A stretch of DNA of 64,000 bases from a virus: IMG/VR virus record IMGVR_UViG_3300045988_070909, positions 78,626 to 142,625 of that record. The stretch is one strand, 5' to 3'. Under the pieces are notes generated by a model. That model was not told where the DNA came from, searched no databases, and saw only the letters and a program-made list of their open reading frames with translations. The position numbers were made by a program, and so were the translations under genes. Within the stretch, counting starts at the first letter, position 1; every line of letters starts with the position of its first letter. Below, one piece after another: positions 3,394 to 61,133 of this stretch.

Positions 3394-4203
3394 TTATTTA
3401 CAAACGTCTATTACAGTTAAGTTCTCGTTGCTGGGACGATAATTAATATCCCTATGAGAATTAGATACAATAACCTGGTCAAAATTATTACACATATTAA
3501 CCAGGCCTTTATCATTAACTGCATGACATACGATTATGATAAACTTGCTATTTGGATATCTCTCTTTGAGAACCTTAAGCTCTCCTAGGAAAGTTCCTCC
3601 AGCATCACACAAGTCATCAATGAACACAAATGTAGAATAGTAGCAATTCTTAGACTCCTCTATTTCAAAGGACTCAATTCTTCCAGTCTCTAGATTTCTT
3701 TCCTTTTTGAAGACTAAATAACCATAGTGAGAATAGTTACTTCCATATCTGTCCTTCGCCCCATGGTCTGGGAACACGATATTACTTTGGGCTGGAATCC
3801 AAGAGTGGTGTCCAAATTCCCAAGGTAAACATCTGTCACCAAGAAGATGAAAAGTTCTACTAGAATGTGCCTCAAGAACATATATGTTTCTATAGCCTAA
3901 GCTATTTAACATATTACATACTACTTTCAAGGAGAATGGACGATTAAAACTCATTACTCTATCCATACGCATAGACATTAAATAAGTAATGTGTAAATCC
4001 CATTCTACTTCTTGTCTATCTAAAATATCTCCTACTTGCATTAAGAGGAATAAATCCTCAGTATTAGATATTCTACAAATGACATCAATAGATTCCTTTC
4101 TGTTTAATTCCTCAGTAAGGAAAAACTGAGGCTCTCCATCAGGAAATCTAGTAACATCGTACTTAATTTCACTGATTTCCTTGTTGATTAAGTTTAATTT
4201 CAT
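3394..4203 (-). CDS. prs: ribose-phosphate pyrophosphokinase (PRPP synthetase)-like
   Basis: RFPDGE (cf. Prs RFSDGE), LEAHS (cf. DLHA) and PRPP-binding FIDDLCDAGGT (cf. VDDMIDTGGT) motifs. Confidence 0.75.
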   Translation of the reverse strand: MKLNLINKEISEIKYDVTRFPDGEPQFFLTEELNRKESIDVICRISNTEDLFLLMQVGDILDRQEVEWDLHITYLMSMRMDRVMSFNRPFSLKVVCNMLNSLGYRNIYVLEAHSSRTFHLLGDRCLPWEFGHHSWIPAQSNIVFPDHGAKDRYGSNYSHYGYLVFKKERNLETGRIESFEIEESKNCYYSTFVFIDDLCDAGGTFLGELKVLKERYPNSKFIIIVCHAVNDKGLVNMCNNFDQVIVSNSHRDINYRPSNENLTVIDVCK

Positions 4204-4624
4204 CTACTACATATTTTAAGATTTCATAACTTTCTTCTAGACCTGCCCTATCATCTAGGAGGATATTATAATAGGGTTTCTCAGAATTAGGAAATACAGG
4301 ACTTTCATTTGTATATAGCTCAAAGTCTTCATCCAGACCTAATAATTTAGCAGTTTTCATCTGTTTAATACATAGCTCTTGAAGATTTGTTTCACAGGTA
4401 AACAATATCAAATGAAATCCCAATTTATAACACTTATTAAGTAAATTTATGACTTCACTATAATCTCCTCCATTATTATGGTAATCGAAAATAGTATTAT
4501 CAAAATCGAAAGCGACTATTAGCTTTCCGTATTTATGATACTCTTCTAATAGTCGTTTCTTGCAAGCTTCTTTCCCAAAAGGATGATTAAAGTCCATGGT
4601 CAATTCTTTGTCTGATTTCTTCAA
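4169..4624 (-). CDS. HAD-superfamily hydrolase-like protein
   Basis: N-terminal FDFDNT (DxDxT) HAD motif I. Confidence 0.5.
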   Translation of the reverse strand: MKKSDKELTMDFNHPFGKEACKKRLLEEYHKYGKLIVAFDFDNTIFDYHNNGGDYSEVINLLNKCYKLGFHLILFTCETNLQELCIKQMKTAKLLGLDEDFELYTNESPVFPNSEKPYYNILLDDRAGLEESYEILKYVVDEIKLNQQGNQ

Positions 4625-6089
4625 GAGAATATTCTTTCTTCAAGATACCATCTTCAAAGACAGTCTCTAAGCATCCCTCTTTTTCCTCCTCGATTGAGAC
4701 CTGGTCGGTAGCAGTATACTTCCCATCCAGACCTTTATAGACAGCAATCAAACCTTTCAAAGAGTTCTTAGTACCATCATCAGTTTTAGGATGTTTGAAG
4801 ATTTCTTTCAATTCGCCATTTACTACGCAAGCAGTAGCCTTAATAGCAAACCCAAGACTATCTCTACTTGCATACTGATAGGAATATGAACCTACTCCCA
4901 GAACGAGATTACAAGCCGCCATATGAGCGTTTTCTAATCTCAAGTAGATTTGCTTTTGACGTTCTAGAGTAATAGAATCTCCATAAAGCAGACCAACCTT
5001 AGTGCTAGGATAACGGTAATCCTTTGAAGTAGTATTCCATCCGAAGATTTTACCAAGCATATAATATGCCCCATAATATTGACCTTCGGACACTTCAACA
5101 TACTCTGCATCGTCGTTAAACGGAGCATAGCAGCAATAATACTTACCTTCTTTCATTCTGGTATTGAAGTGAGGATTAGTTCTCAACCCGCAGATTATAT
5201 CTACTGGGTCTCCACTATCAGGACGGATTACTACTCTACCATCACGAGCCATAATGTCTTTCTTCAGCTTGGGCAAGAAATTTTCAATTACATTCCAGAA
5301 ATCCCAAGTATCAGATACAATAGAAACAAACCCAGAAGGATACAAATCATTAATTAGACGTTTGAAAGTGCCCAGCTCATCTTCCTCCCCTCCAGCACAC
5401 ATTACAGAGTGTTCTGTTGCTGGAACTGTAGCAGCAATCAATTCCTCGTCTGAATTAGCTCCATAATATTCTTCCAAAGCAGCAATAGCTGGAATAGTTT
5501 CACTTCCCACAAAAGAAGTCATATGCGCCATACCAGATATAATTGCGGCTTCCATTCCCGCCATACCTCGCATTGAGAAATCATGACAACAAAAACCAAG
5601 ATTTACATCTGTTGGAAAACCAGTCTTGCAAGCATGACGATGTAGCTCTTTCTTATAAAGCCTAGCTCTAGTAGCAGATGTGCATGGCATCCACAAGGTA
5701 CAGCTGATAATAGTCTCTAAGTAGTTAGTTAACCAAAAGAACTCGGGTAGAGTATTTGTAATGGTCATCATGGGAACCCGAATAGGGCACACAGAACCTT
5801 CAGGAAGAGCCTTTATGCGAATTGGTAGATACCCAAGGTCATATAAAGCTTCAATATGTCTGTACCCAACGGATTCAATACCAACAAAGTTGTTTACTCT
5901 ACGATAGAACATCTCCACAGCTTCCTTCTTTGGTAGATTAAAGAAGTTTTTCTCAAACTGTTTAATGAGATATTCTTTGATTAGGTATTGAATACCAAAT
6001 ACTACTGAACCTTCGGTTGCTTCTGGGAAGTATTTATTACTTCTAGGAGTCCAGTTACTATAAACTTGTTCAGTACCTTCGGGGTACAT
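4587..6089 (-). CDS. nadV: nicotinamide phosphoribosyltransferase (NAMPT/NadV)
   Basis: 500-aa ORF with a NAMPT-like core (PATEHSV ... SDTWD, cf. SDSYD); adjacent to the PRPP synthetase gene. Confidence 0.85.
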   Translation of the reverse strand: MYPEGTEQVYSNWTPRSNKYFPEATEGSVVFGIQYLIKEYLIKQFEKNFFNLPKKEAVEMFYRRVNNFVGIESVGYRHIEALYDLGYLPIRIKALPEGSVCPIRVPMMTITNTLPEFFWLTNYLETIISCTLWMPCTSATRARLYKKELHRHACKTGFPTDVNLGFCCHDFSMRGMAGMEAAIISGMAHMTSFVGSETIPAIAALEEYYGANSDEELIAATVPATEHSVMCAGGEEDELGTFKRLINDLYPSGFVSIVSDTWDFWNVIENFLPKLKKDIMARDGRVVIRPDSGDPVDIICGLRTNPHFNTRMKEGKYYCCYAPFNDDAEYVEVSEGQYYGAYYMLGKIFGWNTTSKDYRYPSTKVGLLYGDSITLERQKQIYLRLENAHMAACNLVLGVGSYSYQYASRDSLGFAIKATACVVNGELKEIFKHPKTDDGTKNSLKGLIAVYKGLDGKYTATDQVSIEEEKEGCLETVFEDGILKKEYSLEEIRQRIDHGL

Positions 6090-6150
6090 TCAGTGATGGC
6101 CCAACTTGTAACCATCTGTAGCATTAATTATTTCCATTCTAAAAATTATT

Positions 6151-6675
6151 TTAATAACTAATTGTTAATAAACTTTTCATGCCTTTACCACTAGCTAAAT
6201 TCTTAAAACACTGAGTGATAAATTCCTTCGTTTCTGGATGGATAGCCCTAGGAGAATTTATATACTTAATCCACCAGTTATATTCTCCTTGAAAACTATT
6301 ACCGTTGTATACTTTACCAGCAGCCAGATAATCGCATACCAATTCTAGAGCATACTCTTTAGGCATCTTCACTGGAACACCGCCAATGTCTAGCTTAGTT
6401 ACCCAGTATTCATAATGGTGTGGATTTCTTCCTCTGTGATGTAAATAAGACCTAGAATATCCTAGAATTTCTTTTTCCTTGTTTAAGGGAGATGTGTCAT
6501 CATCGTAAAATTTTACAGAACGAGAGAACTCATACCATCCGAATTTAGATAAGTCGTGCAAGATGCCCTGTTTGTATAAACCTAACTGAAAACAGTAATA
6601 AGCTACCCAAAACTTATGTCTAAGTATTCGCCTAAGATGTTTCAGTGTTATACACATACATTTAAGAATTTCCAT
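6151..6675 (-). CDS. putative HD-domain phosphohydrolase
   Basis: LHDLSKF and HH...HHYEYW metal-binding-like motifs. Confidence 0.4.
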   Translation of the reverse strand: MEILKCMCITLKHLRRILRHKFWVAYYCFQLGLYKQGILHDLSKFGWYEFSRSVKFYDDDTSPLNKEKEILGYSRSYLHHRGRNPHHYEYWVTKLDIGGVPVKMPKEYALELVCDYLAAGKVYNGNSFQGEYNWWIKYINSPRAIHPETKEFITQCFKNLASGKGMKSLLTISY

Positions 6676-6744
6676 ATCTTCTTCACTATTCTAGTTAGAA
6701 AATTATTTCCTCTTAGATTGAACTTATGTGTATATCCAGACAAC

Positions 6745-6996
6745 TTATCTGGATTCCACACAGCATGAACTATATAGAATAAATATCCTACTGTGTATAG
6801 CATAATGTTCAGTACTGGGATAAATCCTAGGATTAGTATTACTAAAAACTAGCCACACTGGAACTTTAAGGTCATAGTCTTCTTCTATAAGTGCCACACT
6901 TCTGCTATACCCATTGTAATAAACGGTTACATGGGTATCTTTCAAGATAAGCACCGTGATGATTACCATCACAGTGCATATTACTAGATACATCAT
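6745..6996 (-). CDS. small membrane protein
   Basis: 83-aa ORF with a hydrophobic N-terminus. Confidence 0.35.
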   Translation of the reverse strand: MMYLVICTVMVIITVLILKDTHVTVYYNGYSRSVALIEEDYDLKVPVWLVFSNTNPRIYPSTEHYAIHSRIFILYSSCCVESR

Positions 6997-9290: not shown

Positions 9291-9725
9291 TTAATCCCAC
9301 CAAGACCTCATACGTTCAAACTTTAGTTTGTTGTATAAGTACCAGGCTTTTTCTCTTCTCAGATAATCTTTAAGGATTGGAGTATTCCAATCGAGATCAG
9401 CAGCCTTAGGGTGGAATCGATTCCAATTTTTAGTATTTATGTGTCTATCTACAAATCCCTTTGACCCAGGTCTAAAGTCATGGTGATACGCAGAATCTAT
9501 TTCTAGCACAATATCTAATAGCTTTAGTGCTAGATTTAGCTCTTTTTCGACACGTTCATTGCCTTCCGCAATTCTAGATACCTTAAAGTATTCATACATT
9601 CTAATTAGGGCTTGTTTCTCTAAAGAGAGAACAAATCCATAATCGAATGGATAAAACTTCATAGCTTCTTTGATAAGTTTCTTATTCTTATTCTTTCTTA
9701 GTTTCATATTCCTGACTTGCTTCAA
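9291..9725 (-). CDS. hypothetical protein
   Basis: 144-aa ORF. Confidence 0.5.
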   Translation of the reverse strand: MKQVRNMKLRKNKNKKLIKEAMKFYPFDYGFVLSLEKQALIRMYEYFKVSRIAEGNERVEKELNLALKLLDIVLEIDSAYHHDFRPGSKGFVDRHINTKNWNRFHPKAADLDWNTPILKDYLRREKAWYLYNKLKFERMRSWWD

Positions 9726-10131
9726 CTGCTAATTTATCTGCGAGATTATTCATCTGAGAAAAGAAGTCTGAACTTGAAGTATGTCCTTTCACCCAACAAA
9801 AATCTATATTAGGACAAAATTGCTTTGCCTTATTTAAGACCTTGTCGTATAAATTCCATAACTCTACGTTCTTCTTTCTTTTCCATCCTTTAGTAGCACA
9901 TCCTATGACGTACTGAGAATCTGAGTAAATAGTCAGAGATTCGATTTTACGACTTACTGCATTTAGAGCATAAATTACTGCTAACAACTCACATTTATTA
10001 TTAGTAGTATTAGGAATCATCTTACTAAATTCATAGGCTTTTTCCCCATCAATTACGAATACAACTCCTACTCCTCCTGTGTCTCTAGACGAGCTAAAAG
10101 CTCCATCAGTGAACACTTCTAGCCTGCTCAT
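9688..10131 (-). CDS. rnhA: ribonuclease H
   Basis: TDGA...ELLA...IYSDSQY...WVKGH...NNLADKLA RNase HI motifs. Confidence 0.8.
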   Translation of the reverse strand: MSRLEVFTDGAFSSSRDTGGVGVVFVIDGEKAYEFSKMIPNTTNNKCELLAVIYALNAVSRKIESLTIYSDSQYVIGCATKGWKRKKNVELWNLYDKVLNKAKQFCPNIDFCWVKGHTSSSDFFSQMNNLADKLAVEASQEYETKKE

Positions 10132-10519
10132 CAGCAGTATTTACTCTCATGTTAGTTCCGAGTAATATTGCTATCTTTAGCAAATCGTCTTGATTGTCAC
10201 AAAATATATTATCTAAAATATAGTTTGCATAATCAACAATTCTAACTCTCTTTCCTATAGCACCATATTTTTCGTTAAGCCATTTAAGCTGAGGAGCAAA
10301 ATCTTCTAGGTCGTCCCCTAAATGCCGTAAAGCCTTCCTAATAGGAACAGGAAACCACATTTTCTCCTTTATCCAGTCTAAATGACAATAACCAAACGCA
10401 AATGCTCTACTTAAATCCTTCTGAATAAACTCGTCTAACTCGAAATTTCTCTCATGCCTACCAGCTTCCTCGAAATCATCTTTCAAATCCTCACAAAAAA
10501 TCTGATTAAATTCAATCAT
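10106..10519 (-). CDS. hypothetical protein
   Basis: 137-aa ORF. Confidence 0.5.
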   Translation of the reverse strand: MIEFNQIFCEDLKDDFEEAGRHERNFELDEFIQKDLSRAFAFGYCHLDWIKEKMWFPVPIRKALRHLGDDLEDFAPQLKWLNEKYGAIGKRVRIVDYANYILDNIFCDNQDDLLKIAILLGTNMRVNTADEQARSVH

Positions 10520-10904
10520 AACTCCAAGTTTCTAGGCAAGCTATAAGTTCCAGCATCCCATATCTGCAAATAACCTTGAATGGTCCAGTAGCTATAGAAA
10601 GATAAGGACTTTTGTTGTCATTGTACAGCTTCATTACTTCTCTTAGTAGTACGCTAGCATTTCTGGATAGTTCGTAAAGAGTGGGAACTCTGTATTCGTT
10701 CGGACCTACATACATTTTCCATGTACTTTTGCCTATACAGCGACCCTCGTCATCATATTCTCTATGACTCTTGTCCCACTGCATATACTCCAGAACCTTA
10801 TCAAAATCAAAGTTCTCCATAATGCTTTTGTATTGTTCCTCCAATGGGGGACAATCATCCCTTGTCAGGACTGTTCTCTTTGTTTTGCTCATTTTTTGTA
10901 ACAA
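10512..10904 (-). CDS. hypothetical protein
   Basis: 130-aa ORF. Confidence 0.5.
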   Translation of the reverse strand: MLQKMSKTKRTVLTRDDCPPLEEQYKSIMENFDFDKVLEYMQWDKSHREYDDEGRCIGKSTWKMYVGPNEYRVPTLYELSRNASVLLREVMKLYNDNKSPYLSIATGPFKVICRYGMLELIACLETWSYD

Positions 10905-11197
10905 TTAACAAGATTCTGTAAGTTGGACAACTTATCAGTTCTTACACTGACCAGTAGCCCACCCTTACGTAAGTTGTAACTAAGTTTAATTCCGCAATGA
11001 TTTAGAATTTCGATAAACTCTCTCAATGCGCTTCCCTTTAACACATTTCTGTAGACTAGTTTCTGACCATCTTGATATCCTGCTCGATAGTATTCATTCG
11101 CAACATCAGAAATAAGCCATCGCTTAATAGGAGATACCCTACTTAAGAGTTCATTGACTCTGGTTGCGATAAAATCCATATTACTGAATACTATCAA
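10889..11197 (-). CDS. hypothetical protein
   Basis: 102-aa ORF. Confidence 0.5.
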   Translation of the reverse strand: MIVFSNMDFIATRVNELLSRVSPIKRWLISDVANEYYRAGYQDGQKLVYRNVLKGSALREFIEILNHCGIKLSYNLRKGGLLVSVRTDKLSNLQNLVNCYKK

Positions 11198-11354
11198 TTA
11201 CAAGACTATCCACACCTAGAGTGTCTACACTCATTGTGTCAGCAACTTCTTTAACGATTGCGATAGAATCGTTTTCTGGAGCCTGAGTCTTTGTATTACC
11301 TGCACAAGCAGACATCAGTGCAACCATTCCGAAAAGCAATAGTACTTTCTTCAT
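11181..11354 (-). CDS. small lipoprotein (58 aa, below the ORF-track threshold)
   Basis: MKKVLLLFGMVALMSAC signal peptide plus lipobox, read by eye. Confidence 0.35.
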   Translation of the reverse strand: MKKVLLLFGMVALMSACAGNTKTQAPENDSIAIVKEVADTMSVDTLGVDSLVIDSIQ

Positions 11355-17374: not shown

Positions 17375-17591
17375 CTTTAATTCCTAGATAATCCTTTAAT
17401 AATTGAATGTTTCCTTCTCTCAAATGCCGAATAAAAGCCTCCCTTTCTCTCTCAAATAGCAGAATTTTACTCTCTAACAGGTCTATTCGTCTTTGTTGAT
17501 TTTCCTCGTATTCTTCAATAGCGTCAGAAATTGCTTTAAGTATAGAAGATTCCTTCATAGCGCTACTCATTGTAGAACTCTTCGTCCCCAT
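17367..17591 (-). CDS. hypothetical protein
   Basis: 74-aa ORF. Confidence 0.4.
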   Translation of the reverse strand: MGTKSSTMSSAMKESSILKAISDAIEEYEENQQRRIDLLESKILLFEREREAFIRHLREGNIQLLKDYLGIKDE

Positions 17592-17990
17592 TATCGTCGC
17601 CTATAGGATTCTCCCATCCGTACTTTACAGCAGTAGCCTTAAACAAAGGCAACCCATACATAGCATAATTCTCTTCAGGATAATTCTCTAAGCCCTCTTC
17701 TAGAACTTGATTCCATCTTAGTACCACGTAGAACATTAGGCTAGCTGAAATGCCTCTCTGGTCTAGAGCCTTCTCAAAACCAAACTCTACGTCAGACTTA
17801 AGTTGCTCTAGGATATTCCCTCTAGTCCATTCCTTAGGCTCTGGATAAGGCTCATCACCATCGTACTTGAAGCCTATTTTTTCTAACTGCTCTTCTGTTA
17901 AAAAACTTTGCTAATCTAGAACCGAAACGGTCATCGAGAACTACGGCATAGTCTTTGTAATTGTCTAAAATCTCATTTAACGTTTTCATT
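17581..17990 (-). pseudogene. gene interrupted by a frameshift at an A6/T6 homopolymer
   Basis: ATG at 17988-17990 opens a 45-aa frame; a ~100-aa continuation lies in another frame across the TTTTTT run near 17899-17906. Confidence 0.35.
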
Positions 17991-18446: not shown

Positions 18447-19121
18447 CTACTGCACAATCAAGCTATAAGCTTCTTGCAACAGTTTAATAGTTGGAACCAT
18501 ACGGTTATCAACAACTATTATTTTATAAATGTTCAGAATTTCTTTGTAGGTTAAAGATGTACAAGTTAGAAATATCTGCACATCTTCGTTTACAGAACCA
18601 TTTGACAATCCCAAATCTACTTTAATCATACTGGGTAATGTTCCAATCTGAGAAATGTCCCAAGTAGATTTAGTTCTCCTGAAAACTTCCCGCTGTTTGG
18701 AAGTAAGTTGCTTTTCTTTCAATCTAGACTCAATAATAGTACCATCAAACGTTAACGAACCTCCATCGGTATTACTATTATTTAATGCTAGCTGAATCCT
18801 CTGAACTGCAGAGTCTTTAGGTTTTGGCTTAAGTTGCACTCCTTCCTTCAAGCCCTTAATAATCTGCAATGAAGGAATAAAGTCTTTTATTTGAGTTGCA
18901 TTCCACACAAGAAATTTTCCAGGACTATCTTTAACAGTAACTATATACTTAGTCCCTCCGTTCAATGGAATAATCACTTGTAAGTCTGCATCACTCATTT
19001 TACTTAAATGGTCTGATACTCTAACTTTGACGTTTCCAATGACAAAGTAGCGAGAAACAGTTGTTTCCGCTTCGATAATCTCAGTAGCAGTTGCTACTAA
19101 ATACTTTTCCAATCTAGTCAT
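18447..19121 (-). CDS. hypothetical protein
   Basis: 224-aa ORF. Confidence 0.55.
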   Translation of the reverse strand: MTRLEKYLVATATEIIEAETTVSRYFVIGNVKVRVSDHLSKMSDADLQVIIPLNGGTKYIVTVKDSPGKFLVWNATQIKDFIPSLQIIKGLKEGVQLKPKPKDSAVQRIQLALNNSNTDGGSLTFDGTIIESRLKEKQLTSKQREVFRRTKSTWDISQIGTLPSMIKVDLGLSNGSVNEDVQIFLTCTSLTYKEILNIYKIIVVDNRMVPTIKLLQEAYSLIVQ

Positions 19122-20121: not shown

Positions 20122-20147
20122 AATCGGTTGAGCTATAGCCCTGTCAT

Positions 20148-20699
20148 GTGGACCTAACGGGAGTCGAACCCGTGTCCAAACAACCCTTATTACAAGGATA
20201 ACGTGCGTCTCATTTTTATTACATCAGCTAGTGAGTTCTAGCATTTAGATAGTTTTACTAGATTTACTCTAAACTACACTATCGAGTTTTAGAAACTAGT
20301 TTACAAACCACCAAACTGGGCTGACCAAAGTCAACTCTCCACCACCTACTTTTTAACGCTAAAATAGGAAAACGAGTGTTTGTGGTGAGTCAACCACGCA
20401 GGTACACATCCCTTCTGTTTAAAGACAGCGGAGATTCAGTCTTACTAACTCTTAGAGTGTTCTGATTAAAGATATACCACGGATTATCGTCCGCACGCCA
20501 TTAGCGGTATACCTAACCTCTTCTGTTTCTAGGTCTCTCCAGTAACCCGACTTGATTAATAGTGTCTATTAATAAGCCAGCAGCTTAGGCTGCCATTCTT
20601 ACAGGTGCAATTTCTGCAGTTATTTGTTTTCTTCGTTTAAAGAGATTGCGCTCTACACGTCCTTATAATTCGTAATCGCCTGTCAAATCCAAGTAGGCC
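20148..20699 (-). ncRNA. ssrA: tmRNA (ssrA), unusually long (~550 nt)
   Basis: 5' end GGGCCUACUUGGAUUUGACAGG matches the tmRNA 5' consensus; G3-U70 wobble pair; 3' end T-arm ACGGGTTCGACTCCCGT plus acceptor TAGGTCC-A; candidate tag ORF GCA GAA ATT GCA CCT GTA AGA ATG GCA GCC TAA (AEIAPVRMAA*). Confidence 0.65.
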
Positions 20700-20742
20700 C
20701 ATGTTCCAGTTTATCTCTGATTAGAAAACTGGAGAAAAGAAA

Positions 20743-22573: not shown

Positions 22574-22594
22574 AATTTTTTAAATAAAGTTTGT

Positions 22595-22666
22595 GGACAC
22601 GCAGGGACTCGAACCCTATCTTCCGGTGTGCAAAACCAGCGCTCTAGCCATTTGAGCTAACGGCCC
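22595..22666 (-). tRNA. tRNA-Ala (anticodon UGC), acceptor stem imperfect
   Basis: 5' GGGCCGTTAGCTCAAATGGCTAGAGC; anticodon stem CTGGT/ACCGG with loop TTTGCAC; G3-U70 possible. Confidence 0.55.
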
Positions 22667-23267: not shown

Positions 23268-23510
23268 ATAGTTAATTTTCTCCACGGGTGTAGATAAGTA
23301 CCCTTTGGTACTTACCTTTTAGTAGTATCTTTACTCTAGACCTCTATAAGGAGGCGGAATAGTTCCAGAAACTAACCATGTATAGCTCTTAGAACTCTGT
23401 TCAAAATACCACTTAGCAGCTTTCTTCACAACATTAATTACTTTCTTCATAACATCAAAGTTTAAAATTGTTAATAATTAATCTAATTCAGAGCCACAAA
23501 AGGAGTTTCG

Positions 23511-23589
23511 TTGCGGAGGTAGGATTCGAACCGTTTATGACGATTTCTAGGTTATGAGCCTAGCGAGATGACCACTTCTCTACTCCACG
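23511..23589 (-). tRNA. tRNA-Met-like (CAU) with an aberrant T-arm; C1xA72 mismatch as in initiator tRNA
   Basis: Perfect anticodon arm CTAGG-CTCATAA-CCTAG and D-arm GAGA/TCTC; the T-stem does not pair; possible pseudo-tRNA. Confidence 0.4.
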
Positions 23590-24014
23590 ATATTGGCAGC
23601 TACTTTACATCCGCTACCCAGGGATGCCTCTATCACCAGTGAGGCACGGACTATTCTAACCGTATAGCACGACTGGTTGGTAACGTCTCCAGACACGGCA
23701 TTTAGACTGAAAATGTCGAAACAGTGATTTAAAGATTAAATAGGCTCTGGAAGATATTTCCAAATGTAGCCATACTATGATTTGGTTTTATTCTTACAGC
23801 ATCCTATAATATGACTCTATGCAGATTTATTGTCAGTAATTCCGTTATTAATTAACCATTCCTAAGCTTCTCTGGAACCAAAGAATACCTGTATAAAATT
23901 ACCTGCTAAGTCATACTAAGCAATTAACTTTGCGTTACTTTTTCTAATTTTTATATTATTTGCCTTCAAAACTTTGTAAATAGTGTCTTTACAGCACCCT
24001 ATTTTTTCTTGTAT

Positions 24015-24371
24015 CTAAGAACTAGTATATCCCAATCTAGCTAATTCTACAATTTCACTATGATTGTATAGAATAGTGCCATCTCCTCCTTTAGAGGCAT
24101 TGTACCCATTAGAACCATAAGTTCCTAGCTCTTTTATCCAATAGATTTCTCTTTCAGATAATTCAGAGTTACTATCTACATATTCCAATTCCTCTATCAT
24201 AAAGTTCTCAACACCATACTTATTCATGGCATCATATAAAGGTCTTTTGTTGCATCTTTCTTTCTAAAAGTCATAACAATGTTCCTTCCAGCGCTCTTCT
24301 ATAGAAGTAGTAGTTTTTCCTACGTATCGCTTGCTATTAATTAAATTTGTAATGCAATAAATATATGCCAT
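24015..24371 (-). CDS. GIY-YIG homing endonuclease with an in-frame TAG codon (at 24264-24266)
   Basis: MAYIYCITNLINSKRYVGKT...ERWKEHCYDF[TAG]KERCNKRPLYDAMNKYGVENF...EIYWIKELGT...GYNASKGG aligns with the I-TevI catalytic domain across the TAG. Confidence 0.65.
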
Positions 24372-24391
24372 ATTTTTAAATTTAAAATTAG

Positions 24392-24475
24392 AATCCGTGG
24401 AGGGATTCGAACCCTCATTAAAGATTTCTCTTTTCAGTTTTGCAGACTGATGGCTAAACCATTCACCCACACGGA
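24392..24475 (-). tRNA. tRNA-Cys-like (anticodon GCA, U73) with a long variable arm (class II-like, 84 nt)
   Basis: Acceptor ATCCGTG/CACGGAT, anticodon stem TCAGT/ACTGA with loop CTGCAAA, variable hairpin AAGA-GAAA-TCTT. Confidence 0.5.
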
Positions 24476-24554
24476 TATTAAGATTTAAAGTACTTCTCTC
24501 TAAATGGGATATTAAATAATGAATCATTAATATCCTTATCAGTTATTTCCCTAC

Positions 24555-24779
24555 CTAGAGCCTTCTCCGCACATTCGCTACAGATAAACACATGGTGGTC
24601 TGGATAATAATCTTTACCTCCCCTTTGTAATAAGAGGAGAATTTCTTTGCAGCTTCTTTTTCAAAATTGGTTAGCTTAAAGTAATTTATTATCTTGTTCC
24701 AAACCTCATCAATAAACATTGGAGAGTTATGGTCTCCATAATAAAATTCTTTATTACATACTGTACACTTTATTTTCAT
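24555..24779 (-). CDS. small zinc-ribbon protein
   Basis: 74-aa ORF beginning CTVC. Confidence 0.45.
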   Translation of the reverse strand: MKIKCTVCNKEFYYGDHNSPMFIDEVWNKIINYFKLTNFEKEAAKKFSSYYKGEVKIIIQTTMCLSVANVRRRL

Positions 24780-24794
24780 AAAACTTAAATTTTG

Positions 24795-24866
24795 AGTAGG
24801 TAATGAGAATCGAACTCACATCCTCGGCATGGCAAGCCGATGCACTAACCGTTGTGCTATACCTAC
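24795..24866 (-). tRNA. tRNA-Gly (anticodon GCC)
   Basis: Acceptor GTAGGTA/TACCTAC; anticodon loop TTGCCAT. Confidence 0.75.
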
Positions 24867-24871
24867 AAATG

Positions 24872-24946
24872 TGCAGATAGAGAGACTCGAACTCTCCCCT
24901 TCAGATTGGAAGTCTGACGTGCTCAAACCATTAACACCACATCTGC
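24872..24946 (-). tRNA. tRNA-Gly (anticodon UCC)
   Basis: Acceptor GCAGATG/TATCTGC; anticodon stem TCAGA/TCTGA with loop CTTCCAA. Confidence 0.75.
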
Positions 24947-28742: not shown

Positions 28743-28786
28743 TGGACCTAGAGGGCTTTGAACCCCCGACCTCCTGATTATGAGTC
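28743..28786 (-). other. 3' half of a split tRNA(CAU): anticodon loop CTCATAA, T-arm, acceptor TAGGTCC-A
   Basis: Pairs with the 5' half at 29492-29522 (GGACCTA); the HNH ORF stop codon TAA lies inside the anticodon loop. Confidence 0.55.
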
Positions 28787-29323
28787 TTTCTTTCTTATTC
28801 CTTGAATAACTCTGCGAGTTAATCCAAAATGCTGAGCAACTTTCTCCCAATTCTTAAGTATTTCGTACTGCTCATTTACTTCTTCTAGAGAAGGATAATG
28901 TTTATCAGCATCTCTGCATTCCTTAGAACAGTATATCTTACCCTTAGATTTAGGAAATCTTTTGCCGCATACTGGGCATACAGACCCAGTCATATTTTCA
29001 AAAGACGTCTTATCTTTAGCTTCAGTATTAACTAAATCTTCAACTTCGTCCATTCCCAAGTGAGGGTTATGTACTTCTCTATGACAATTAGCGCATAGAA
29101 GTTGACATTTATCTACTTCCTCTTTAAGCCTTTCTAGACTTGTATTAGATAAATGTCTCATATCTAACTGAAACTCTTTCTCATCTGGATTGATATGGTG
29201 AAATTCTAGAACAGCTATGTTTCTATCATAGCTACATAGTTCACATTTACCACCACGAGATTTTATTAGCTCTAATTTGCGCTTTAAACCTCTTAACTTT
29301 TGTGTATTATAATCATTGTAATT
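28778..29323 (-). CDS. HNH homing endonuclease (start trimmed to the MNYNDYN ATG near 29323)
   Basis: CELC...HHINP...LLCANCH HNH motif and C-terminal CPVC...CSKEC; sits between the two halves of a tRNA. Confidence 0.7.
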   Translation of the reverse strand, partial: NYNDYNTQKLRGLKRKLELIKSRGGKCELCSYDRNIAVLEFHHINPDEKEFQLDMRHLSNTSLERLKEEVDKCQLLCANCHREVHNPHLGMDEVEDLVNTEAKDKTSFENMTGSVCPVCGKRFPKSKGKIYCSKECRDADKHYPSLEEVNEQYEILKNWEKVAQHFGLTRRVIQGIRKKDS

Positions 29324-49231: not shown

Positions 49232-50545
49232 ATGGCTAAAGTGTAGTTTGACCCTGAATTGATGCGTAATATCAAAATTATTTACGGAGATGCGGACTTA
49301 GATGAGAGAACCTTGAGGTAGTTGCATTAGACTTGGGCAACTAATCCAGACATTATTAGAAGAACCGCACAATAGAAAATGCCTAAGTTACAAGAGGCAT
49401 ATTTTGATGCTCCAGAAATGCCTTCATTACCCACAAGATTAGAACCTCTTCCTACTGCTGAAATAGCTTAGGATGATTTAAGAGGTGTTAAAGATTTTAA
49501 GACAGCTTTTAGGGCTGCTAGAGAGAGAGGACTAAAACAGTTTATGTGGGGAAATTCTGTATATACTACAGACTTAGGACAGCCTTCAAGTAAGCCTAAA
49601 CAACCTTCTACCATTCAGATTCCTTAGTCAGATACTTAGATTAGTATAGAAGCTCCAGACCTAATTGCTACAACAAAAGGAACTACTTGGGGTAGAGGAA
49701 TACCAACTATTACAGGAGGCAGTTAGCCAGCTAGTGAATAGACAAGAGCCGAGTAGCCTTCAAGTAAGCCTAAAGTAAATCCTGTACAGGCCACTATCAG
49801 TAGATATACTATGGGAAAGACAGTACAAGGAGGAGATTTTGGGATACATAGGGGGTTATAGAGATTATTTAATTATCTTGGAGATGTATGGAATTCTAGA
49901 AAATCAGAAGCTAAACCATTAACATTATCTCCGGGACATACAACTAAATTTCAACAAGGAGGAACAATGAATAATCAACAAGAATTACAAAAAGCGTTTG
50001 TGGCATATTTAATATAGGATGCGCAGTCATAGGGAGTTCAGATATAGTCTGAACAGGATTTACAAGCTTATGTTGAACAATTAGGTGAAGACGGCATTAA
50101 AGCTAAGTATCAGGAATTTATGCAGAAAATGCAAGGAGGAGTAATGGCTAGGCTTGGAGCTAAGCTTGAGTATTATAAGAAGCTAAAAGGAGTATGTCCA
50201 GAAGGAGAAGAGCTTGTATATTTTAAGCAAGGCGGTAGAATCTGTAAAGCTTGCCAGAAAGCACAAAAAGGAACTAAAGTTACTAAGAAAGCTAATGAAG
50301 TTGATAAATTTAAGGCAGGAAGAGCTTAGTATAAGAAAGATATGAAATCTGCTAGAGACGAAGCCTCAAGAGATTCTATATTAATCAATAAATACAATGA
50401 TTAGGAAACTATGGCCAATAAAGGACATAAGGGTAATTTCCAGGGAGGAAAATGGGTTCCTGACAGAAAACAATATGCTAAGAAAGACGCTTGTGGCTCA
50501 AAAATGAAAGTCAATAAGTGCGGTTCCAAAATGAAAAAGAAATAA
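49232..50545 (+). CDS. TAG-recoded hypothetical (virion?) protein
   Basis: Frame open from ATG 49232 to TAA 50543-50545 only if about 17 in-frame TAGs are sense; includes track fragment 50120-50329. Confidence 0.5.
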
Positions 50546-50582
50546 TAAGATTATCTAATGTGTATGATAATGATTAATGATT

Positions 50583-51143
50583 ATGAATGTATTTAACTAT
50601 AACACTTTAACTAAATAGCTAGAAATAAATGAACCAGAGATATTACTAGTTAAGGAATTTAAGGCTTTAATCTAGAGGGATAAATCTGCAGAAAAGGATA
50701 GAGCTACTAGAGAACTATCTTACATTTATTTAGCTATAGACTGGAAAAGTCCGTACAGTTAGTATTCGGAACATGAACGACATGACGAAGCTATTAGTGA
50801 TTCTGGATTGACAGAGTCAGAATTTAATGACCCTATATTTAGAGAAGCTTGTAGGAAATACAGAGCGTTACAAGATTCAAACAAGTCAATAAAATTACTA
50901 GAAGCAGCTAAAAGAGCTGCAGACTAGTTTATTGATTATTTCGAAACTATTGTAGATTTAAATGAGCGTGATAATAACGGCAAGCCAGTATTCCAGGCTG
51001 AAAAAGTAATGAAGGAAATGGCTACTCTTCACAAAGTTCATGAAGAACTCATAACACTAGAAGACTAGGTTAAGAAAGAACTTACTGAACAATCTACTGT
51101 TAGAGCTGGAGCTGTGGATGGTTTTGACCCAGGAGACTTTTAA
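50583..51143 (+). CDS. TAG-recoded hypothetical protein
   Basis: ATG 50583 to TAA 51141-51143 with 5 in-frame TAGs. Confidence 0.45.
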
Positions 51144-51145
51144 TT

Positions 51146-53518
51146 ATGCCAAGAAAAAAGATATTACCTGAAGAAATATAGAATATTGTAGATTAGGTAA
51201 GAGAAAAAGAATAGAAAGAGGATGCTAAAGAAGCTAGAGAATTAGTATAGAAAATAAGAGAGGAAAGGGTCAGAAATTCTGACTATTGGGATGTTAAAAT
51301 AGGAGATAAAATAGAAGTATTTGACCCTACCTTATCTTATGAAATAACTGGATACAGACCTATTGACGAAACTCATGGATTGGACTTTAATCCAGATTGG
51401 TTTACCGAGACTAGGGAAGTATATAAACGAACTGGTCAATACTGTCCCTACCTTAGAGATAGTAAGCGGTACAACGAATTTTGGAAAGAGCAATATAGAA
51501 GATGTAAGTATGGAATGACAGTTAATGGATACACCATTACTGGAGATAATTACTTCTTCTTAAATTTCTATTAGTTACCTACTATTGACTAGCAGAAAGC
51601 CTCTGGTGAGGGTACTGATAATGACTTCCCAATATTCTTTGCATCACATTATATGTTCTTTCATTATCTATAGATGGCTAGAGTGCTACACAAGCACGCA
51701 GCTTTAATGAAAGCTCGTTCTATTGGATTCTCTGAAATAAACGCCTCTCTTTCTGCTCGTATGTACTCTGTTATTAGAAGAAGTAGGGTTATGATTACTT
51801 GCTTTAATGATACCTTCCTTAAGGGTACCTTTAGTAAGTTTGATAATGCTCTTACATTCTTAAATACCTGTACTGGAGGAGGATTTTTTAAATTGCGACT
51901 TATTGACCAGGATTTGAGAAAGAAATCAGGTAAACAAATCAAAATAAATGGTTAGTTTGAAGACGTAGGATTTAAATCTGAGGTTGTAGCAATTAACGGA
52001 GCTAAACCATCTAATATTCGTGGAGACCGTGTAGATTTATTAATATATGATGAAGCTGGTTCCTGGCCTGGACTTGATACCGCTGTGGTACAAGGTCAAG
52101 AACTTTGTGAAGTTCAAGGTATGCCTCGTGGAACAATGTTGTTTGGAGGTACTGGCGGTGATATGGGTGCTCCTCTAGAGGGCTTAAAAAAGATTTACTA
52201 TAATCCAAGAGCATATAAGATTCTTCCATTTAGACATAATTGGACTTAGGATGGGACTACTATAGAGAGTGGATTCTTTATTCCATACTTTATACAATCT
52301 TTGAATCCAGAATTTATGGACCACAGAGGAGTATGTAATACTGTGGAATATAAGAAATTCTTATAGGAGGAGCGAGATAATCTGTTAGCTGTACCAGAAG
52401 ACTACCTAAAGAAATGCGCTGAACGTTGTTGGAATGCAGAAGAAGCATTTAATCTAGAAGGTGTTAATAAGTTTAATAAAATTTTAGTTGCCGAATAGAT
52501 AGCTAATATAAGACTTAAACAAATTGGCCCAAGACCCGAATGTGGTTATATTGATTATTTTTACAAAAATAATAAACATACTTAGGATAATATTGATGGT
52601 TTTAAATGGATTCCTAACAGCAATGGCAAAGTAAAAATTCTAGAGCATCCAATATGGTCTGACTTATATAAAGAACAAATGGAAAAGCTTAGATAGGAGG
52701 CAGAAGATAATGGCTAGGATTTTGAAGTTCCAGTTTATAAAGAGATGCGAGACTTGTATGTAGCAGGTATAGACGGTATTGATATTGGAGCGAATTAGAC
52801 TTCTAAGGAAACCAGAGACCCGTCTGATTTCTGCATAATGATTAAGAAACGTGCGTTTGGTATGAATGACCCTCAGTATGTTGCCATGTACAAGGATAGA
52901 CCTGGAGACATCAGAGAAGCCTATAAAATAGCTATGTGTTTAGCTCGCTATTATAATTGTAAAATAAATATAGAAGCTACTCGTATGGGTATGGTTACTT
53001 GGGCTAGAGAAAAAGGATGCCTTAACTATTTTATGAAGCGCCCAAGAGCTACTCTAACTGACGTTAGAAATGGAACTACTAAATAGTATGGAACTCCTGC
53101 TACAAAAACTATAATCGAATAGCATACTGATTTAACAGCCGCCTTTATAGAAGACTATTGCCATACTATATGGTTCGAAGAAATGCTAGAATAGTTCACT
53201 GCATATAATGATGAAAATAAGGGTAAGTATGATATTGTAGCCGCTGTAGGTATGACTGAGTTAGCAGACCAAGAGCTATCAGGAAGACAGCCCATACTTG
53301 TGGAGAAAGAAGTTGAATAGTTCCAAGATTTTGGTTACTATTACGACGAGAGAGGAATTAAAAGATTTGGAGTTATTCCAACTAAGAAAACTCCTGAACT
53401 TAATATGCAAAGAAACGAATATGATGACCCATACAGAGTTGAAACAAGTGATCCTAGAATATATGAGGGACTTGTACAAAATGGAGTATATAGGCGGACT
53501 AGATATTGAGAGTTTAGA
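51146..53518 (+). CDS. terL: terminase large subunit (TerL), TAG-recoded
   Basis: Frame from ATG 51146 to TGA 53516-53518 with more than 15 in-frame TAGs; ATPase-like LLIYDEAGSW segment and an RNase-H-like nuclease part (DPSDFCIMIK...INIEATRMG...). Confidence 0.7.
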
Positions 53519-53759
53519 CCCAGTTGGGTATAAAGTCTCTTTTAACTTTGATAGGTCAGAAATGCCATTAGTAATAATAGCAGATTTACCAGACGAAGAA
53601 TTTCTGCCATTTATTAAGGAAGAATTAAGAAGTAGGAAGTTACAAAGAGTTAAGTATTATAACGCTACTAAACTTCCTCCAGAACAACATAATTTATGTT
53701 ATGAAAGAGAAGGAATTGATAGACAAGACAAACGAGGCTATTGCGGAACTTGTATATGA
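53421..53759 (+). CDS. small hypothetical protein overlapping the TerL end and the portal start
   Basis: 113-aa frame MMTHTELKQ... ending TGA 53757-53759. Confidence 0.3.
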   Translation: MMTHTELKQVILEYMRDLYKMEYIGGLDIESLDPVGYKVSFNFDRSEMPLVIIADLPDEEFLPFIKEELRSRKLQRVKYYNATKLPPEQHNLCYEREGIDRQDKRGYCGTCI

Positions 53760-55872
53760 TAAGTATGAGTTACAGAAAGCTTATAATTATTATAATGGTA
53801 AAAGAGATCCTGAATAGTTCCGTTATCTGGAAGAAAACTTCGGAATAGGTAGCCCCACTTCGGTAGAGTTTACGCCTTTATTAAAGAAACACGTAGATGC
53901 TCTAGTTGGAGAATATTTAGGAACTCCTATACTTCCGAAAATTTCTTGCAAAGATTCAGATACTATCAGTAATATAACAAGAGAAAAATAGCTAGAAATA
54001 ACCAAGGGAATAGTAAAGTTTTTGAAAGACCATTTAAGTAATTCAATTCTTAAGTTTATTGATGGCAAGGATATTACTGATAAAGCTGTAAAGACTTAGT
54101 TAGATAAAATTATATAGGATATTGACCAATCCTTTATTTCTCAATATGAAATTGCAGCTTAGAATATAGTACATTATATTATGCAATCCAGAGAAACCGA
54201 TTTAATTACTAAGTTACGTTAGTTACTAACAGACTTATTAATTACTGGTTATACATTCTTTAGAGTGAAATCATCGGCTTCTGGAACTAATATTGAAATA
54301 GAGGTATTAAACCCACTTAATACATTTGTTGATAGAAATCCAGAATCTCCATATGTAAGGAACTCATATAGAGTTGTAGTAAGAAAGTGGATGAGTAAGA
54401 GTTAGATTTTAGCTAAATATGGCAAAGAAATATCTAGAGAAGATTTAAGAAGACTAAAAGATGAATGGCGAGCTGATGATTCAGCTGCTGTTTATAGAAG
54501 AGTATATGGAGATACTTGTACAGTAGTAAATGAAGATTAGAATCATGAAACCATTCCCGGCTATCCAGACAATGAATATAGTGCTCATAGGTTCTAGTTA
54601 ATCCCAGTCTATGATGTTGAATGGATTGAAACAGATGATGATTTTGTGATGTAGAGATACAATACTATCAGAATAGGAGAAGAGATATATATTCTTAGAG
54701 GATTAGACAAGACTGTTATGAGGTCTAAAGATAATCCCAACTTCTGTTCTTTATCGGTAAATGGAGTATATTTCTTAAATCGCTCTTAGTAGCCTTATTC
54801 TCTTATATTAAAATGTGCACATCTGTAGGATAGATACGACTTATTAAACTATTATAGAGATAATCTAATAGCTAATAGTGGTACTGCTGGAGTTATTATG
54901 GATATGTCTCTGTTGCCTACCAACTTAGGAGTTAAATGGCCAGAACGAGTACAAAAATGGTTAGCTTATAAAAAAGGTGGTATCATGTGGATAGACTCAA
55001 GCCAAGAAGGTAGGAATGACGGACAGCAAGCTCCAAACTAGATATATAACGGATTTGATGATACCTTAAAAGCATAGGCTGTATAGGCTATTGAATTAGC
55101 TATTCAATCAGTAGAACAAACTACATCATCAATAACTGGAGTATTTAGGGAACGACTTAACGGTATAGAAACTAGAGATGCAGTTACTAATATTAAGTAG
55201 GGAGTAGCTAACTCGTATATAGTAACTAAGCACTATTTTTAGCAGATGGATTTAATAACCTGCGAGATACTACTAGATAGTCTTAATTAGGCTAAAGTTA
55301 CTTATAAGAAAGGATTAACTGGAACTATTATACTTGGGGATAAATATCAACAGATATTTACAGCACTTCCTGAGTATTTTACTGTTACTGACTACGATAT
55401 TCATATTACTGCTAGTTCAGAAGTGATGGAAGATCTATAGACTATAAAAGCAATCATTCCAGAGTTCGTAAAAAGTCAACAGATGGATCCAGATATTATT
55501 TTTGAGGCTCTTACATCTAAGAGTCTGACAGACCTTAAATATAAGGTTAAGAAAGCTGTTCAAGTTCGCAAAGAGGAAAATAATCAGCTTCAGCAACTAC
55601 AAGAAAAATTAGAAGAAACCTCTCAATAGGCTTAGTAGTTACAGCAAGAATTATAGAAAGCTCAGCAAAAGATTGAAAGCTTAGATGAATAGAGACTGGG
55701 ATTAGAATAGTAGAAGATGCAGTTAGAATATAAAGTTAACTGGCTTAAAGCTCAGTCTGATTCTACTTATAAAGATAGACAAATGGATATTGAAGAAAAA
55801 AGAACTGAAATAGAGTTGGCTTAGCTTCATGATGGAAATCCATATAATGACAAAATAAGACAAATACATTAA
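53701..55872 (+). CDS. portal protein (putative), TAG-recoded
   Basis: ~723-codon frame from ATG 53701 to TAA 55870-55872 with about 30 in-frame TAGs; size and position after TerL. Confidence 0.6.
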
Positions 55873-55873
55873 T

Positions 55874-56602
55874 ATGGCAACTGGAACAATTGTATACAAC
55901 AAAGATTAGTAGTAGATTTATCCTATCTCTGATGGGACAGTAATTATAAGTAATGCTTCCGGTTCTAAATCAAATGTAGAAGACGACTTAAAAAAATTAT
56001 TTAAGTAGGTATCAGATTTATCCGGTTCAAGTGAAGCAGTTAATAGTATTATTATTAAAATACATTATCTCCCTGCTAATACTGCCAATGAATCTGAAAT
56101 AAAACTATCAAGTAAGTAGTGGTCTGATACTTTTGAGCTTCCAACAGAAGAGAATCCATATATATGGAAAAGAACTAAATTTACTTTTTAGGGAGCTGAT
56201 GAATCATAGGGAACTACTATCTATGAAATAGTAGCGAGTGAGGTCTCTACTATTATATAGACTATATATACTAGAACCAAGGGAATAACACCAGTTATAG
56301 AGTATAAACAAAAAACGAATGAAAAAGGAGATCCTCTCTATATGGATTCTGACGGGAGAGAAACCACAGAAGTAACCTCTACTAAAGCCTATGACTATAA
56401 CTACTACTGGAATGGACAGCCCTCCTCTGGGATTGATAAATTACCTCCTACTCCAGATGGATAGTCTTATACCTGGACTGACTATCCACAAGATATTAGT
56501 TTATCTTTTACTTCTGTTTTTATGTCTAGACGTATAAAGCAATCTGGAAAGTGGGGACCTTTTTCTACACCAGCTCAATACGGTCAATGGCCTAACACTT
56601 AA
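55874..56602 (+). CDS. TAG-recoded hypothetical structural protein
   Basis: ATG 55874 to TAA 56600-56602 read codon by codon; 8 in-frame TAGs. Confidence 0.5.
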
Positions 56603-56614
56603 TATTATTGCAAT

Positions 56615-57346: not shown

Positions 57347-57543
57347 GAGAAAGGCTATTAAAAGGTATGAGGATTTTCTAAGAAAACTCAAAAAGGGATA
57401 TAAACCAGATTATCAAGATATTCTTAATCTAATTTGTTTTATTAACCTACCTGTAAGACTAGATAATCACGAATTTATTAAATAGCAATTATTAAACTAG
57501 AATGATACAGTCTATTTACACTTCGGTAAGTAACGCAGATATA

Positions 57544-60914: not shown

Positions 60915-60918
60915 ACAA

Positions 60919-61131: not shown

Positions 61132-61133
61132 AT

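Follow-up and report, generated by a model that had tools for sequence, protein, structure and literature searches.

A predicted free-standing GIY-YIG homing endonuclease gene with six in-frame TAG codons in the tRNA array of a probable crAss-like phage

We analyzed a 64,000-nucleotide (nt) stretch of viral DNA (IMG/VR record IMGVR_UViG_3300045988_070909, positions 78,626 to 142,625; hereafter the window, whose own numbering is used throughout) with a focus on a minus-strand gene that lies between tRNA-Cys and tRNA-Met within a tRNA array and is predicted to encode a GIY-YIG homing endonuclease. The minus-strand frame that opens at the ATG at 24371 translates as MAYIYCITNLINSKRYVGKTTTSIEERWKEHCYDF-TAG-KERCNKRPLYDAMNKYGVENF... 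and, over a further stretch, as MAYIYCITNLINSKRYVGKTTTSIEERWKEHCYDF-TAG-KERCNKRPLYDAMNKYG...; it extends over 211 codons devoid of TAA and TGA up to a TAA stop at 23736-23738 (636 nt in total) and includes six in-frame TAGs at codons 36, 119, 152, 170, 185, and 199. The gene, the two regions of its product, and the flanking tRNA genes are as follows.

23736-24371, minus strand: complete gene for the GIY-YIG homing endonuclease, with TAA after 211 sense codons, six of them TAG (read as Gln)
24099-24371, minus strand: GIY-YIG catalytic domain, residues 1 to 91, which holds TAG codon 36 (Pfam, I-TevI alignment, and fold)
23754-24062, minus strand: C-terminal putative DNA-binding region, residues 104 to 206, with five of the six TAGs (subthreshold Pfam matches and modeled structure)
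24391-24476, minus strand: tRNA-Cys(GCA) of 86 nt, with an extended variable arm and a distance of 19 nt to the downstream endonuclease start (ARAGORN; Rfam, 56.3 bits; fold)
23510-23589, minus strand: tRNA-Met(CAT), downstream of the endonuclease gene (ARAGORN)

An earlier sequence-only reading had recognized here a GIY-YIG gene whose frame crosses a TAG, which is borne out by translation with TAG as Gln and by the Pfam match described below, but it ended the gene at 24015 and counted a single internal TAG. That position belongs to the second of six in-frame TAGs, and the gene spans 636 rather than 357 nt. The true start is 24371, since the homologs of the protein (982 at an E value of ≤1e-5) are nearly all 209 to 214 amino acids (aa) long; a 263-aa database version of the endonuclease covers the upstream tRNA and is therefore overextended. 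In DNA of such composition, a frame would run for 211 codons without TAA or TGA with a probability of ∼3.6e-5, and six stop-type codons would all be TAG with one of ∼1e-3. TAA, TAG, and TGA all interrupt the two remaining frames of the same stretch, with 18 such triplets in one and 28 in the other. The endonuclease is kept by purifying selection as a full-length frame: the ratio of nonsynonymous to synonymous substitution rates (dN/dS) over the whole frame is 0.16 in the comparison with contig L017 and 0.14 in that with contig L024 (homologs 61 to 69% identical, with synonymous sites near saturation), and 13 independent contigs share the 211-codon frame unchanged, including its six TAGs. Under the standard code, the region breaks into open reading frames (ORFs) of 87 and 70 aa, and contig L021 does hold a frameshifted copy of the gene; both observations would suit a decayed or split gene, in which the TAGs are real stops that leave a 35-residue peptide plus unrelated fragments or a conserved two-ORF layout. 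We regard such decay as scarcely credible, given that none of the six interruptions is TAA or TGA in spite of the many stops of the other frames, that selection acts along the entire frame in all these contigs, that homologs are full length and have Gln at three of the TAG positions, and that TAG likewise interrupts every late gene. A conserved truncated two-ORF arrangement was not found among the homologs, which are full length (209 to 214 aa), show Gln or TAG at codon 36, and carry TAGs of their own at nonconserved positions.

Domain searches were run on the protein with TAG read as Gln. The Pfam GIY-YIG family (PF01541) matched residues 1 to 91 over its whole profile (positions 1 to 78 of 78; E = 6.2e-13; 49.3 bits versus a cutoff of 22.6), as anticipated for a code-15 translation, and PHROG 314, annotated as homing endonuclease, matched residues 1 to 206 (E = 4e-31). 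The catalytic domain of I-TevI (PDB 1MK0 and 1LN0), the sole solved structure found by sequence search, aligns with residues 4 to 93 without interruption over the codon-36 TAG (E = 1.4e-9; 36% identity), in agreement with the continuity across this codon that had been claimed from the letters of the DNA. Residues Y5, Y16, R27, H31, E75, and N91 are present and invariant across a 33-sequence alignment (the window protein plus 32 database homologs), and the catalytic residues align with the I-TevI set, i.e., the two Tyr of the GIY and YIG motifs, Arg27, Glu75, and Asn90 (I-TevI numbering). Structural comparisons used the AlphaFold model of a 73% identical database homolog (P0002; predicted local distance difference test [pLDDT] score, 86.5) in place of the window protein itself. 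The N-terminal half of this model superposes on I-TevI 1MK0/1LN0 with template modeling (TM) scores of 0.76 to 0.84 and a root mean square deviation (rmsd) of 2.3 to 3.0 Å, and its C-terminal half consists of a three-helix helix-turn-helix (HTH) followed by a beta-beta-alpha-alpha-beta module. Pfam matches to the C-terminal half were all below threshold (HTH_23, HTH_28, HTH_7, and NUMOD1), and Foldseek returned a weak match of the modeled half to I-HmuI 1U3E (probability, 0.95; E = 0.067). The T4 Seg-type profile SegE_GIY-YIG (PF19835) scored 16.4 bits, under its cutoff of 25, which does not support membership in this subfamily. Sequence and model together point to a homing endonuclease of the free-standing GIY-YIG kind, in which a catalytic domain like that of I-TevI is joined to a putative helix-turn-helix tail.

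The identity of the amino acid inserted at TAG can be approached from the homologs and from the tRNAs of the window, for which the relevant positions are listed below.

24264-24266, minus strand: TAG codon 36; a true Gln codon in contigs L017 to L020, TAG in L022 to L024, Lys or Arg in distant homologs
24015-24017, minus strand: TAG codon 119; Gln in L017 to L020 and L024
23916-23918, minus strand: TAG codon 152; Gln in most homologs
23862-23864, minus strand: TAG codon 170; homologs have Ala, Ile, Met, Gly, Ser, or Gln
23817-23819, minus strand: TAG codon 185; homologs have Arg, Lys, Ser, Tyr, His, or Gln
23775-23777, minus strand: TAG codon 199; Ala in nearly all homologs
44477-44549, plus strand: suppressor tRNA with anticodon CUA (ARAGORN; Rfam tRNA, 66.3 bits), the sole plus-strand tRNA of the window
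30389-30461, minus strand: tRNA-Gln(UUG), to which the suppressor tRNA is more closely related than to any other tRNA of the window

Codons 36, 119, and 152 are genuine Gln codons in L017 to L020, which provide the closest distinct homologs (69 to 70% identical), and in the 61% identical homolog of L024, the first of these codons is TAG and the other two specify Gln. At codon 36, the question raised by the initial reading of which residue the orthologs carry is thus answered by Gln or TAG, with Lys or Arg only in distant ones. In the 33-sequence alignment, the column at codon 119 is at least 90% Gln and that at codon 152 is invariant Gln, although some database Gln residues at these two positions may themselves be translated TAGs. 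Among 22 distinct homologs, enrichment opposite TAG is highest for Gln (4.5-fold, compared with 2.1-fold for Glu and 1.5-fold for Lys; the homologs are related, so the counts are not independent). Relative to a TAG-free homolog, 14 of 17 TAG positions of the terminase correspond to Gln, Glu, Asp, Lys, or Arg. The tRNA(CUA) is 71% identical to the phage tRNA-Gln(UUG) and has the same D-arm, U1-A72 pair, and A73, and proteomics has demonstrated that other crAss-like phages read TAG as Gln (PMC9523058). On this evidence, the phage decodes TAG as glutamine. Decoding as another residue (e.g., pyrrolysine [Pyl], Tyr, Leu, Lys, or Glu), or by the tRNA(UUA) that also exists in the window rather than by tRNA(CUA), could invoke the default ARAGORN label of the CUA tRNA, "Pyl", and the numerically common Lys, Glu, and Arg opposite TAG; the lead of Gln in enrichment, the nearly uniform Gln columns at codons 119 and 152, the tRNA-Gln features of the suppressor, and the proteomic precedent make it very unlikely.

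The endonuclease gene stands out from its surroundings by its TAG content. With TAG treated as a sense codon, ORFs of 200 aa or more cover 0.46 of the window, compared with 0.24 otherwise; recoding of TGA or TAA was discarded, as neither roughly doubles this coverage and TAG alone does. The TAG-rich genes are gathered in a plus-strand block.

49232-62984, plus strand: late TAG-rich block with terminase large subunit, portal, and tail proteins, 121 in-frame TAGs in 4,372 codons
51146-53509, plus strand: terminase large subunit, 19 TAGs
53701-55872, plus strand: portal, 28 TAGs

In the plus-strand block from 49232, TAG makes up 0.50 of the Gln-type codons (TAG+CAA+CAG). By contrast, 28 long minus-strand ORFs, which include NAPRTase, SPFH, AAA ATPase, and OmpA-like genes, have no TAG in their 6,408 codons, where the late rate would predict 177, and none among 189 Gln-type codons. 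The endonuclease gene uses TAG for six of the eight Gln-type codons (0.75) among its 211 codons, a composition that differs sharply from that of the TAG-free ORFs (Fisher test on Gln-type codons, 6 TAG and 2 CAA/CAG versus 0 TAG and 189 CAA/CAG; P = 4e-10). These counts set aside apparent TAG-containing minus-strand ORFs that were N-terminal overextensions, TAG-terminated genes with backup stops, or doubtful (for example, 3394-4212, 6648-6914, 10106-10621, 17536-17976, 28778-29449, and 43145-43612). The sequence-only reading is supported in that minus-strand neighbors avoid TAG, late plus-strand genes are full of it, and the window encodes a tRNA(CUA). Among 44 minus-strand ORFs of 90 aa or longer called under the standard code, 27 stop at TAA, 14 at TGA, and 3 at TAG. 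The three TAG-ending ORFs (18447-19121, 39979-40482, and 43166-43612) have an in-frame TAA or TGA 5 to 11 codons further on, and such backup stops would limit readthrough once TAG is suppressed. Related IMG/VR contigs are 185 to 193 kb long, and the closest record to the phage is a human fecal contig (MT837398.1; 94%). The terminase is most similar to those of unclassified human fecal contigs (43 to 44% identity) and 25 to 29% identical to Crassvirales terminases of phages that infect Bacteroidota. The source is thus, as far as similarity of sequence can tell, a ∼190-kb crAss-like human-gut phage. Two opposed gene blocks combined with recoded late genes are also found in code-15 crAss-like phages (PMC9523058 and PMC12386605).

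Comparison with related contigs uncovered that the gene varies in presence and position. The features involved, and the related contigs that carry other versions of the locus, are the following.

23728-24792: cassette of 1,065 bp (zinc-ribbon ORF, 86-nt tRNA-Cys, and endonuclease gene), present in the window and absent from the near-identical contig L017
24478-24779, minus strand: CxxC...CxxC zinc-ribbon ORF within the cassette, split in the window by a G run one base shorter
L008, L010, and L015: colinear with the window, 99.3 to 99.9% identity
L024: paralog between tRNA-Pro and tRNA-Tyr; a PD-(D/E)XK gene found in the window between tRNA-Lys and tRNA-Pro is missing
L001 and L005: second GIY-YIG paralog beside tRNA-Met
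L004: further GIY-YIG paralog elsewhere in the locus, 10951-11280
L022 and L023: chimeric endonuclease gene, 6001-6633; tRNA-Met lost in L022
L021: the frameshifted endonuclease copy mentioned above

The flanks of the cassette are 99.0% (25000-24793) and 98.5% (23727-23191) identical between L017 and the window. Between these flanks, L017 replaces positions 24792-23728 by 165 nt with a different, 75-nt tRNA-Cys, and it carries a 69% identical endonuclease paralog after tRNA-Leu(UAG) instead. The 165-nt replacement also includes a tRNA-like sequence, missed by the tRNA calls, with UAU in its anticodon loop (L017, ∼9630-9710). In the L022/L023 chimera, the first ∼57 codons correspond to the window gene and the remainder to the paralog of L001 and L005, which looks like the outcome of recombination between tandem paralogs. 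The gene behaves as a mobile homing endonuclease, with presence/absence differences and extra, chimeric, and frameshifted copies among near-identical genomes. As for the zinc-ribbon ORF, its G run has five G's, leaving a ∼100-aa ORF intact, in 9 of the 15 sequences that possess the site (the window and related loci) and four G's in 6, the window among them; the difference stems either from an assembly error in the homopolymer or from a genuine frameshift polymorphism.

Mobile GIY-YIG and PD-(D/E)XK endonucleases are often intron borne, the published example of a recoded endonuclease is intron encoded, and tRNA genes flank the gene described here, all of which would fit a location inside a group I intron of a tRNA or other gene, as for I-TevI or I-Ssp6803I. 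Nonetheless, no intron or ribozyme was found around the gene by Rfam, either over the window at gathering thresholds or over 23400-24900 at E ≤ 5, with group I and group II intron models included; the flanking tRNA-Cys and tRNA-Met are both complete; the conserved 146-nt spacer between the endonuclease gene and tRNA-Met folds no better than shuffled sequences (z = 0.12); and in the cassette-less relative, the whole segment is swapped, with no continuous gene restored. We therefore consider an intron origin highly improbable and take the gene as free-standing, because no intron or ribozyme matches and the flanking tRNAs are intact.

Other genes of the window, with or without TAG, bear on how specific the recoding of the endonuclease is.

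37251-37712, minus strand: PD-(D/E)XK (I-Ssp6803I-like) endonuclease gene, located between tRNA-Lys and tRNA-Pro; TAG in frame at three codons (12, 56, and 127), no CAA or CAG
28778-29326, minus strand: HNH-type endonuclease-like gene with no in-frame TAG (HNH PF01844, E = 0.0013, under the curated cutoff)
45849-46241, 46238-46429, and 46505-46846, minus strand: small genes with two, one, and one in-frame TAGs, respectively (translation)

The PD-(D/E)XK gene matches Pfam PF11645 (E = 2.2e-23) and PDB 2OST (E = 2.7e-4), and its TAG at codon 56 lies opposite the Gln of the QVK motif in the latter structure. In L024, which lacks this gene, merely 91 nt separate tRNA-Lys from tRNA-Pro. In seven other recoded contigs, members of the GIY-YIG endonuclease family contain 2 to 9 TAGs each amid neighbors that are mostly TAG-free, and family members of standard-code phages contain none. 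The three small genes at 45849-46849 had been said to share the in-frame TAG, one of them being holin-like. Their TAGs are real, but the holin label lacks support from homology: the best match of 45849-46241 is PHROG 15610, annotated as protease (E = 9.7e-32), and the product has an HExxH motif and two hydrophobic helices, with no Pfam match at E < 0.1 and no match to a holin family. The two neighbors of this gene gave no match when compared with PHROG. A radical-SAM-like gene on the minus strand (37946 to ∼38900; PHROG 24834, E = 3e-68) has one in-frame TAG without obviously being a late gene; the CxxxCxxC motif of its product is encoded upstream of the first ATG, GTG, or TTG.

What the TAGs would mean for the nuclease follows from their location. 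It follows directly from the sequence that the full-length nuclease requires TAG suppression, because the product otherwise ends at residue 35, before the equivalents of catalytic Glu75 and Asn91; the proposal that full translation needs a UAG-decoding tRNA is upheld in that the codon-36 stop removes both residues. On a host ribosome using the standard code, translation would stop at codon 36 and release a 35-residue peptide without the catalytic Glu and Asn, i.e., no nuclease. Once the tRNA(CUA), a likely tRNA-Gln derivative, is abundant enough to outcompete the release factor at UAG, the 211-residue enzyme would be made, and it would appear together with the terminase, portal, and tail proteins as suppression builds up in infection. 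The enzyme would then presumably cut cassette-less relatives near the tRNA-Gly/tRNA-Cys junction, and repair would copy the cassette (endonuclease, tRNA-Cys, and zinc-ribbon ORF) into the cut relative, as T4 SegB does for its tRNA region. As a whole, the best explanation of the locus is a free-standing GIY-YIG gene that is written in the late code within the tRNA array and depends on suppression, to which we assign a probability of about 0.72. We infer its late suppression, the benefit of the delay, and the cleavage target; a role of the TAGs as an adaptive late-infection timer is plausible.

Several points weigh against such a gated nuclease. Both the early assignment of the minus-strand block and the late assignment of tRNA(CUA) are deduced from genome layout, the former also from TAG avoidance, and scans for sigma-70-type promoters around the endonuclease gene and the suppressor tRNA gave hits at the level of shuffled sequences, with a consensus that is unsuited to Bacteroidota-type hosts. 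The minus-strand block is not purely standard-code, because other genes in it that are not known nucleases hold TAGs (37946-38692 and 45849-46846), and the HNH-like gene at 28778-29326 of the same block has none. The TAG share of the endonuclease gene (0.75) does not significantly exceed that of late genes (0.50; P = 0.14), whereas pooling it with the PD-(D/E)XK gene gives P = 0.03; there is no strong sign of preferential TAG recoding in endonuclease genes. TAG positions are not conserved among homologs, as predicted by ordinary turnover of sense codons. Moreover, the minus-strand tRNA(UUA) at 41376-41446 might conceivably decode UAG through wobble, making any strict gate leakier.

Some of these observations are also what passive drift would produce. 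If the nuclease family passes between TAG-recoded phages and has no early role, CAA/CAG-to-TAG changes would go unopposed, its TAG content would rise to that of late genes, and late-only translation would be a by-product instead of a means to contain toxicity. TAG positions that vary between homologs, with only some in common, a TAG share statistically like that of late genes, the restriction of TAGs to family members from recoded phages, and the TAG-free HNH-like gene all agree with drift. On the other side, the local rule is absence of TAG (28 long neighbors, 0 of 189 Gln-type codons), from which both clear endonuclease genes depart; that T4 has independently limited the translation of its endonucleases to late times (PMC2988022) suggests an advantage of the delay. 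Drift overlaps with the explanation favored here, with the same mechanism and a different selective interpretation only, and we hold it to be possible but somewhat less than probable.

The remaining observations concern the RNA genes and the edges of the blocks. The window has 24 ordinary tRNAs plus the ochre-type tRNA(UUA) on the minus strand and the tRNA(CUA) on the plus strand. Rfam alone, with no ARAGORN call, detected two further minus-strand tRNAs at 22594-22666 (39.5 bits) and 29400-29476 (31.7 bits), as well as a match to transfer-messenger RNA (tmRNA) within the tRNA block at 20146-20700 on the minus strand (73.4 bits versus a gathering score of 47), which spans the full length of the model and includes an insertion. 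A full-length RAGATH-14 RNA (41473-41679, minus strand; 156.6 bits, over the gathering score) precedes the tRNA(UUA) by 26 nt; a literature search on this RNA gave nothing. TAA is the main stop of the phage despite this tRNA, which would read TAA and possibly TAG via wobble. Near tRNA(CUA), Rfam at E ≤ 1 over 41000-45200 found no hepatitis delta virus (HDV)-like or theta ribozyme; a dedicated theta-ribozyme motif was not run. Directly upstream of tRNA(CUA), a plus-strand ORF of 133 aa (43937-44338) has four in-frame TAGs and no family match, and it forms a small plus-strand island that interrupts the minus-strand block. At the end of the structural block, a reverse transcriptase gene (63288-63998, plus strand; PHROG 1423, E = 7e-84) has two in-frame TAGs, is cut by the window edge, and is probably part of a diversity-generating retroelement.

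The proposed arrangement is reminiscent of known systems, each of which differs in part. The idea of a suppression-gated endonuclease is already published in principle: in TGA-recoded Agate phages, an early gene harbors a group I intron whose endonuclease is preferentially recoded with TGA, and Borges et al. reach the same conclusion (bioRxiv 10.1101/2021.08.26.457843, later Nature Microbiology 2022). Both cases feature an endonuclease with in-frame recoded stops in the early (here, presumed early) standard-code region of a recoded phage. In the Agate case, TGA encodes Trp and the endonuclease belongs to a group I intron inside an early gene, whereas here TAG encodes Gln, the GIY-YIG gene is free-standing in a tRNA spacer, the phage belongs to another clade, and a second (PD-(D/E)XK) endonuclease shares the feature. 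In T4, I-TevI, SegB, and MobE are translated only late, as hairpins hide the ribosome-binding site on early transcripts (PMC2988022), and SegB is a free-standing GIY-YIG endonuclease encoded in the T4 tRNA gene cluster (PMC2330249). Like SegB (PMC2330249 and PMC2988022), the present endonuclease is a free-standing GIY-YIG protein encoded between tRNA genes, varies among related phages, and has flanking tRNA genes that are carried along; its paralogs in this phage group sit in different tRNA spacers of different relatives, a SegB-like variability. Translation limited to late times would also be shared, at the level of the proposed mechanism. Unlike for SegB, for which an RNA hairpin imposes the delay, it would here rely on sense-TAG codons that need a phage suppressor tRNA; similarity to the Seg family is weak (SegE_GIY-YIG, 16.4 bits against the cutoff of 25), and its cleavage activity and target are putative. 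With I-TevI of the T4 td intron (1MK0 and 1LN0), the protein shares the catalytic fold and residues and probably also the modular build of a nuclease plus a C-terminal DNA-binding domain with a helix-turn-helix. I-TevI, however, is intron encoded and has a zinc finger in its linker, unlike the free-standing protein of the window, whose C-terminal module is weakly I-HmuI/NUMOD-like. By their description, Zeta crAss-like phages (PMC12386605) also possess a tRNA block with variable homing endonucleases and suppressor tRNAs, and an opposed structural block with a reverse transcriptase, as here; that paper does not report whether these homing endonucleases carry recoded stops.

Homing coconverts flanking DNA, and for this reason endonucleases of this kind could carry suppressor tRNAs with them. 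Three unrelated recoded phage contigs (L032, L029, and L052) have GIY-YIG homologs with in-frame TAGs directly next to a tRNA(CUA) gene: two TAG-bearing GIY-YIG genes flank it in L032 (2671-4673), it lies 95 nt upstream of the endonuclease gene in L029 (5814-6621), and ∼900 nt downstream in L052 (3187-4774). We mention as a speculative and unlikely extension that the endonucleases of this family, which sit preferentially in phage tRNA arrays, may spread suppressor tRNA genes from one phage lineage to another, and with them the ability to recode TAG. If this were true, its own TAGs would make the endonuclease work only where a suppressor is present or received, which would couple a selfish element to a change of the genetic code.

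For annotation, the locus indicates that standard-code gene callers fragment the endonuclease gene, and the presence/absence series in near-identical genomes supplies candidate empty-site DNA. The gene would represent a second, independent example of a homing endonuclease in the late code of a phage inside a standard-code region, differing from the published case in the codon (TAG versus TGA), the endonuclease types, and the phage clade. As such, it supports the view of stop-codon recoding as a translational timer for potentially harmful proteins, in parallel with the hairpin-mediated delay in T4.

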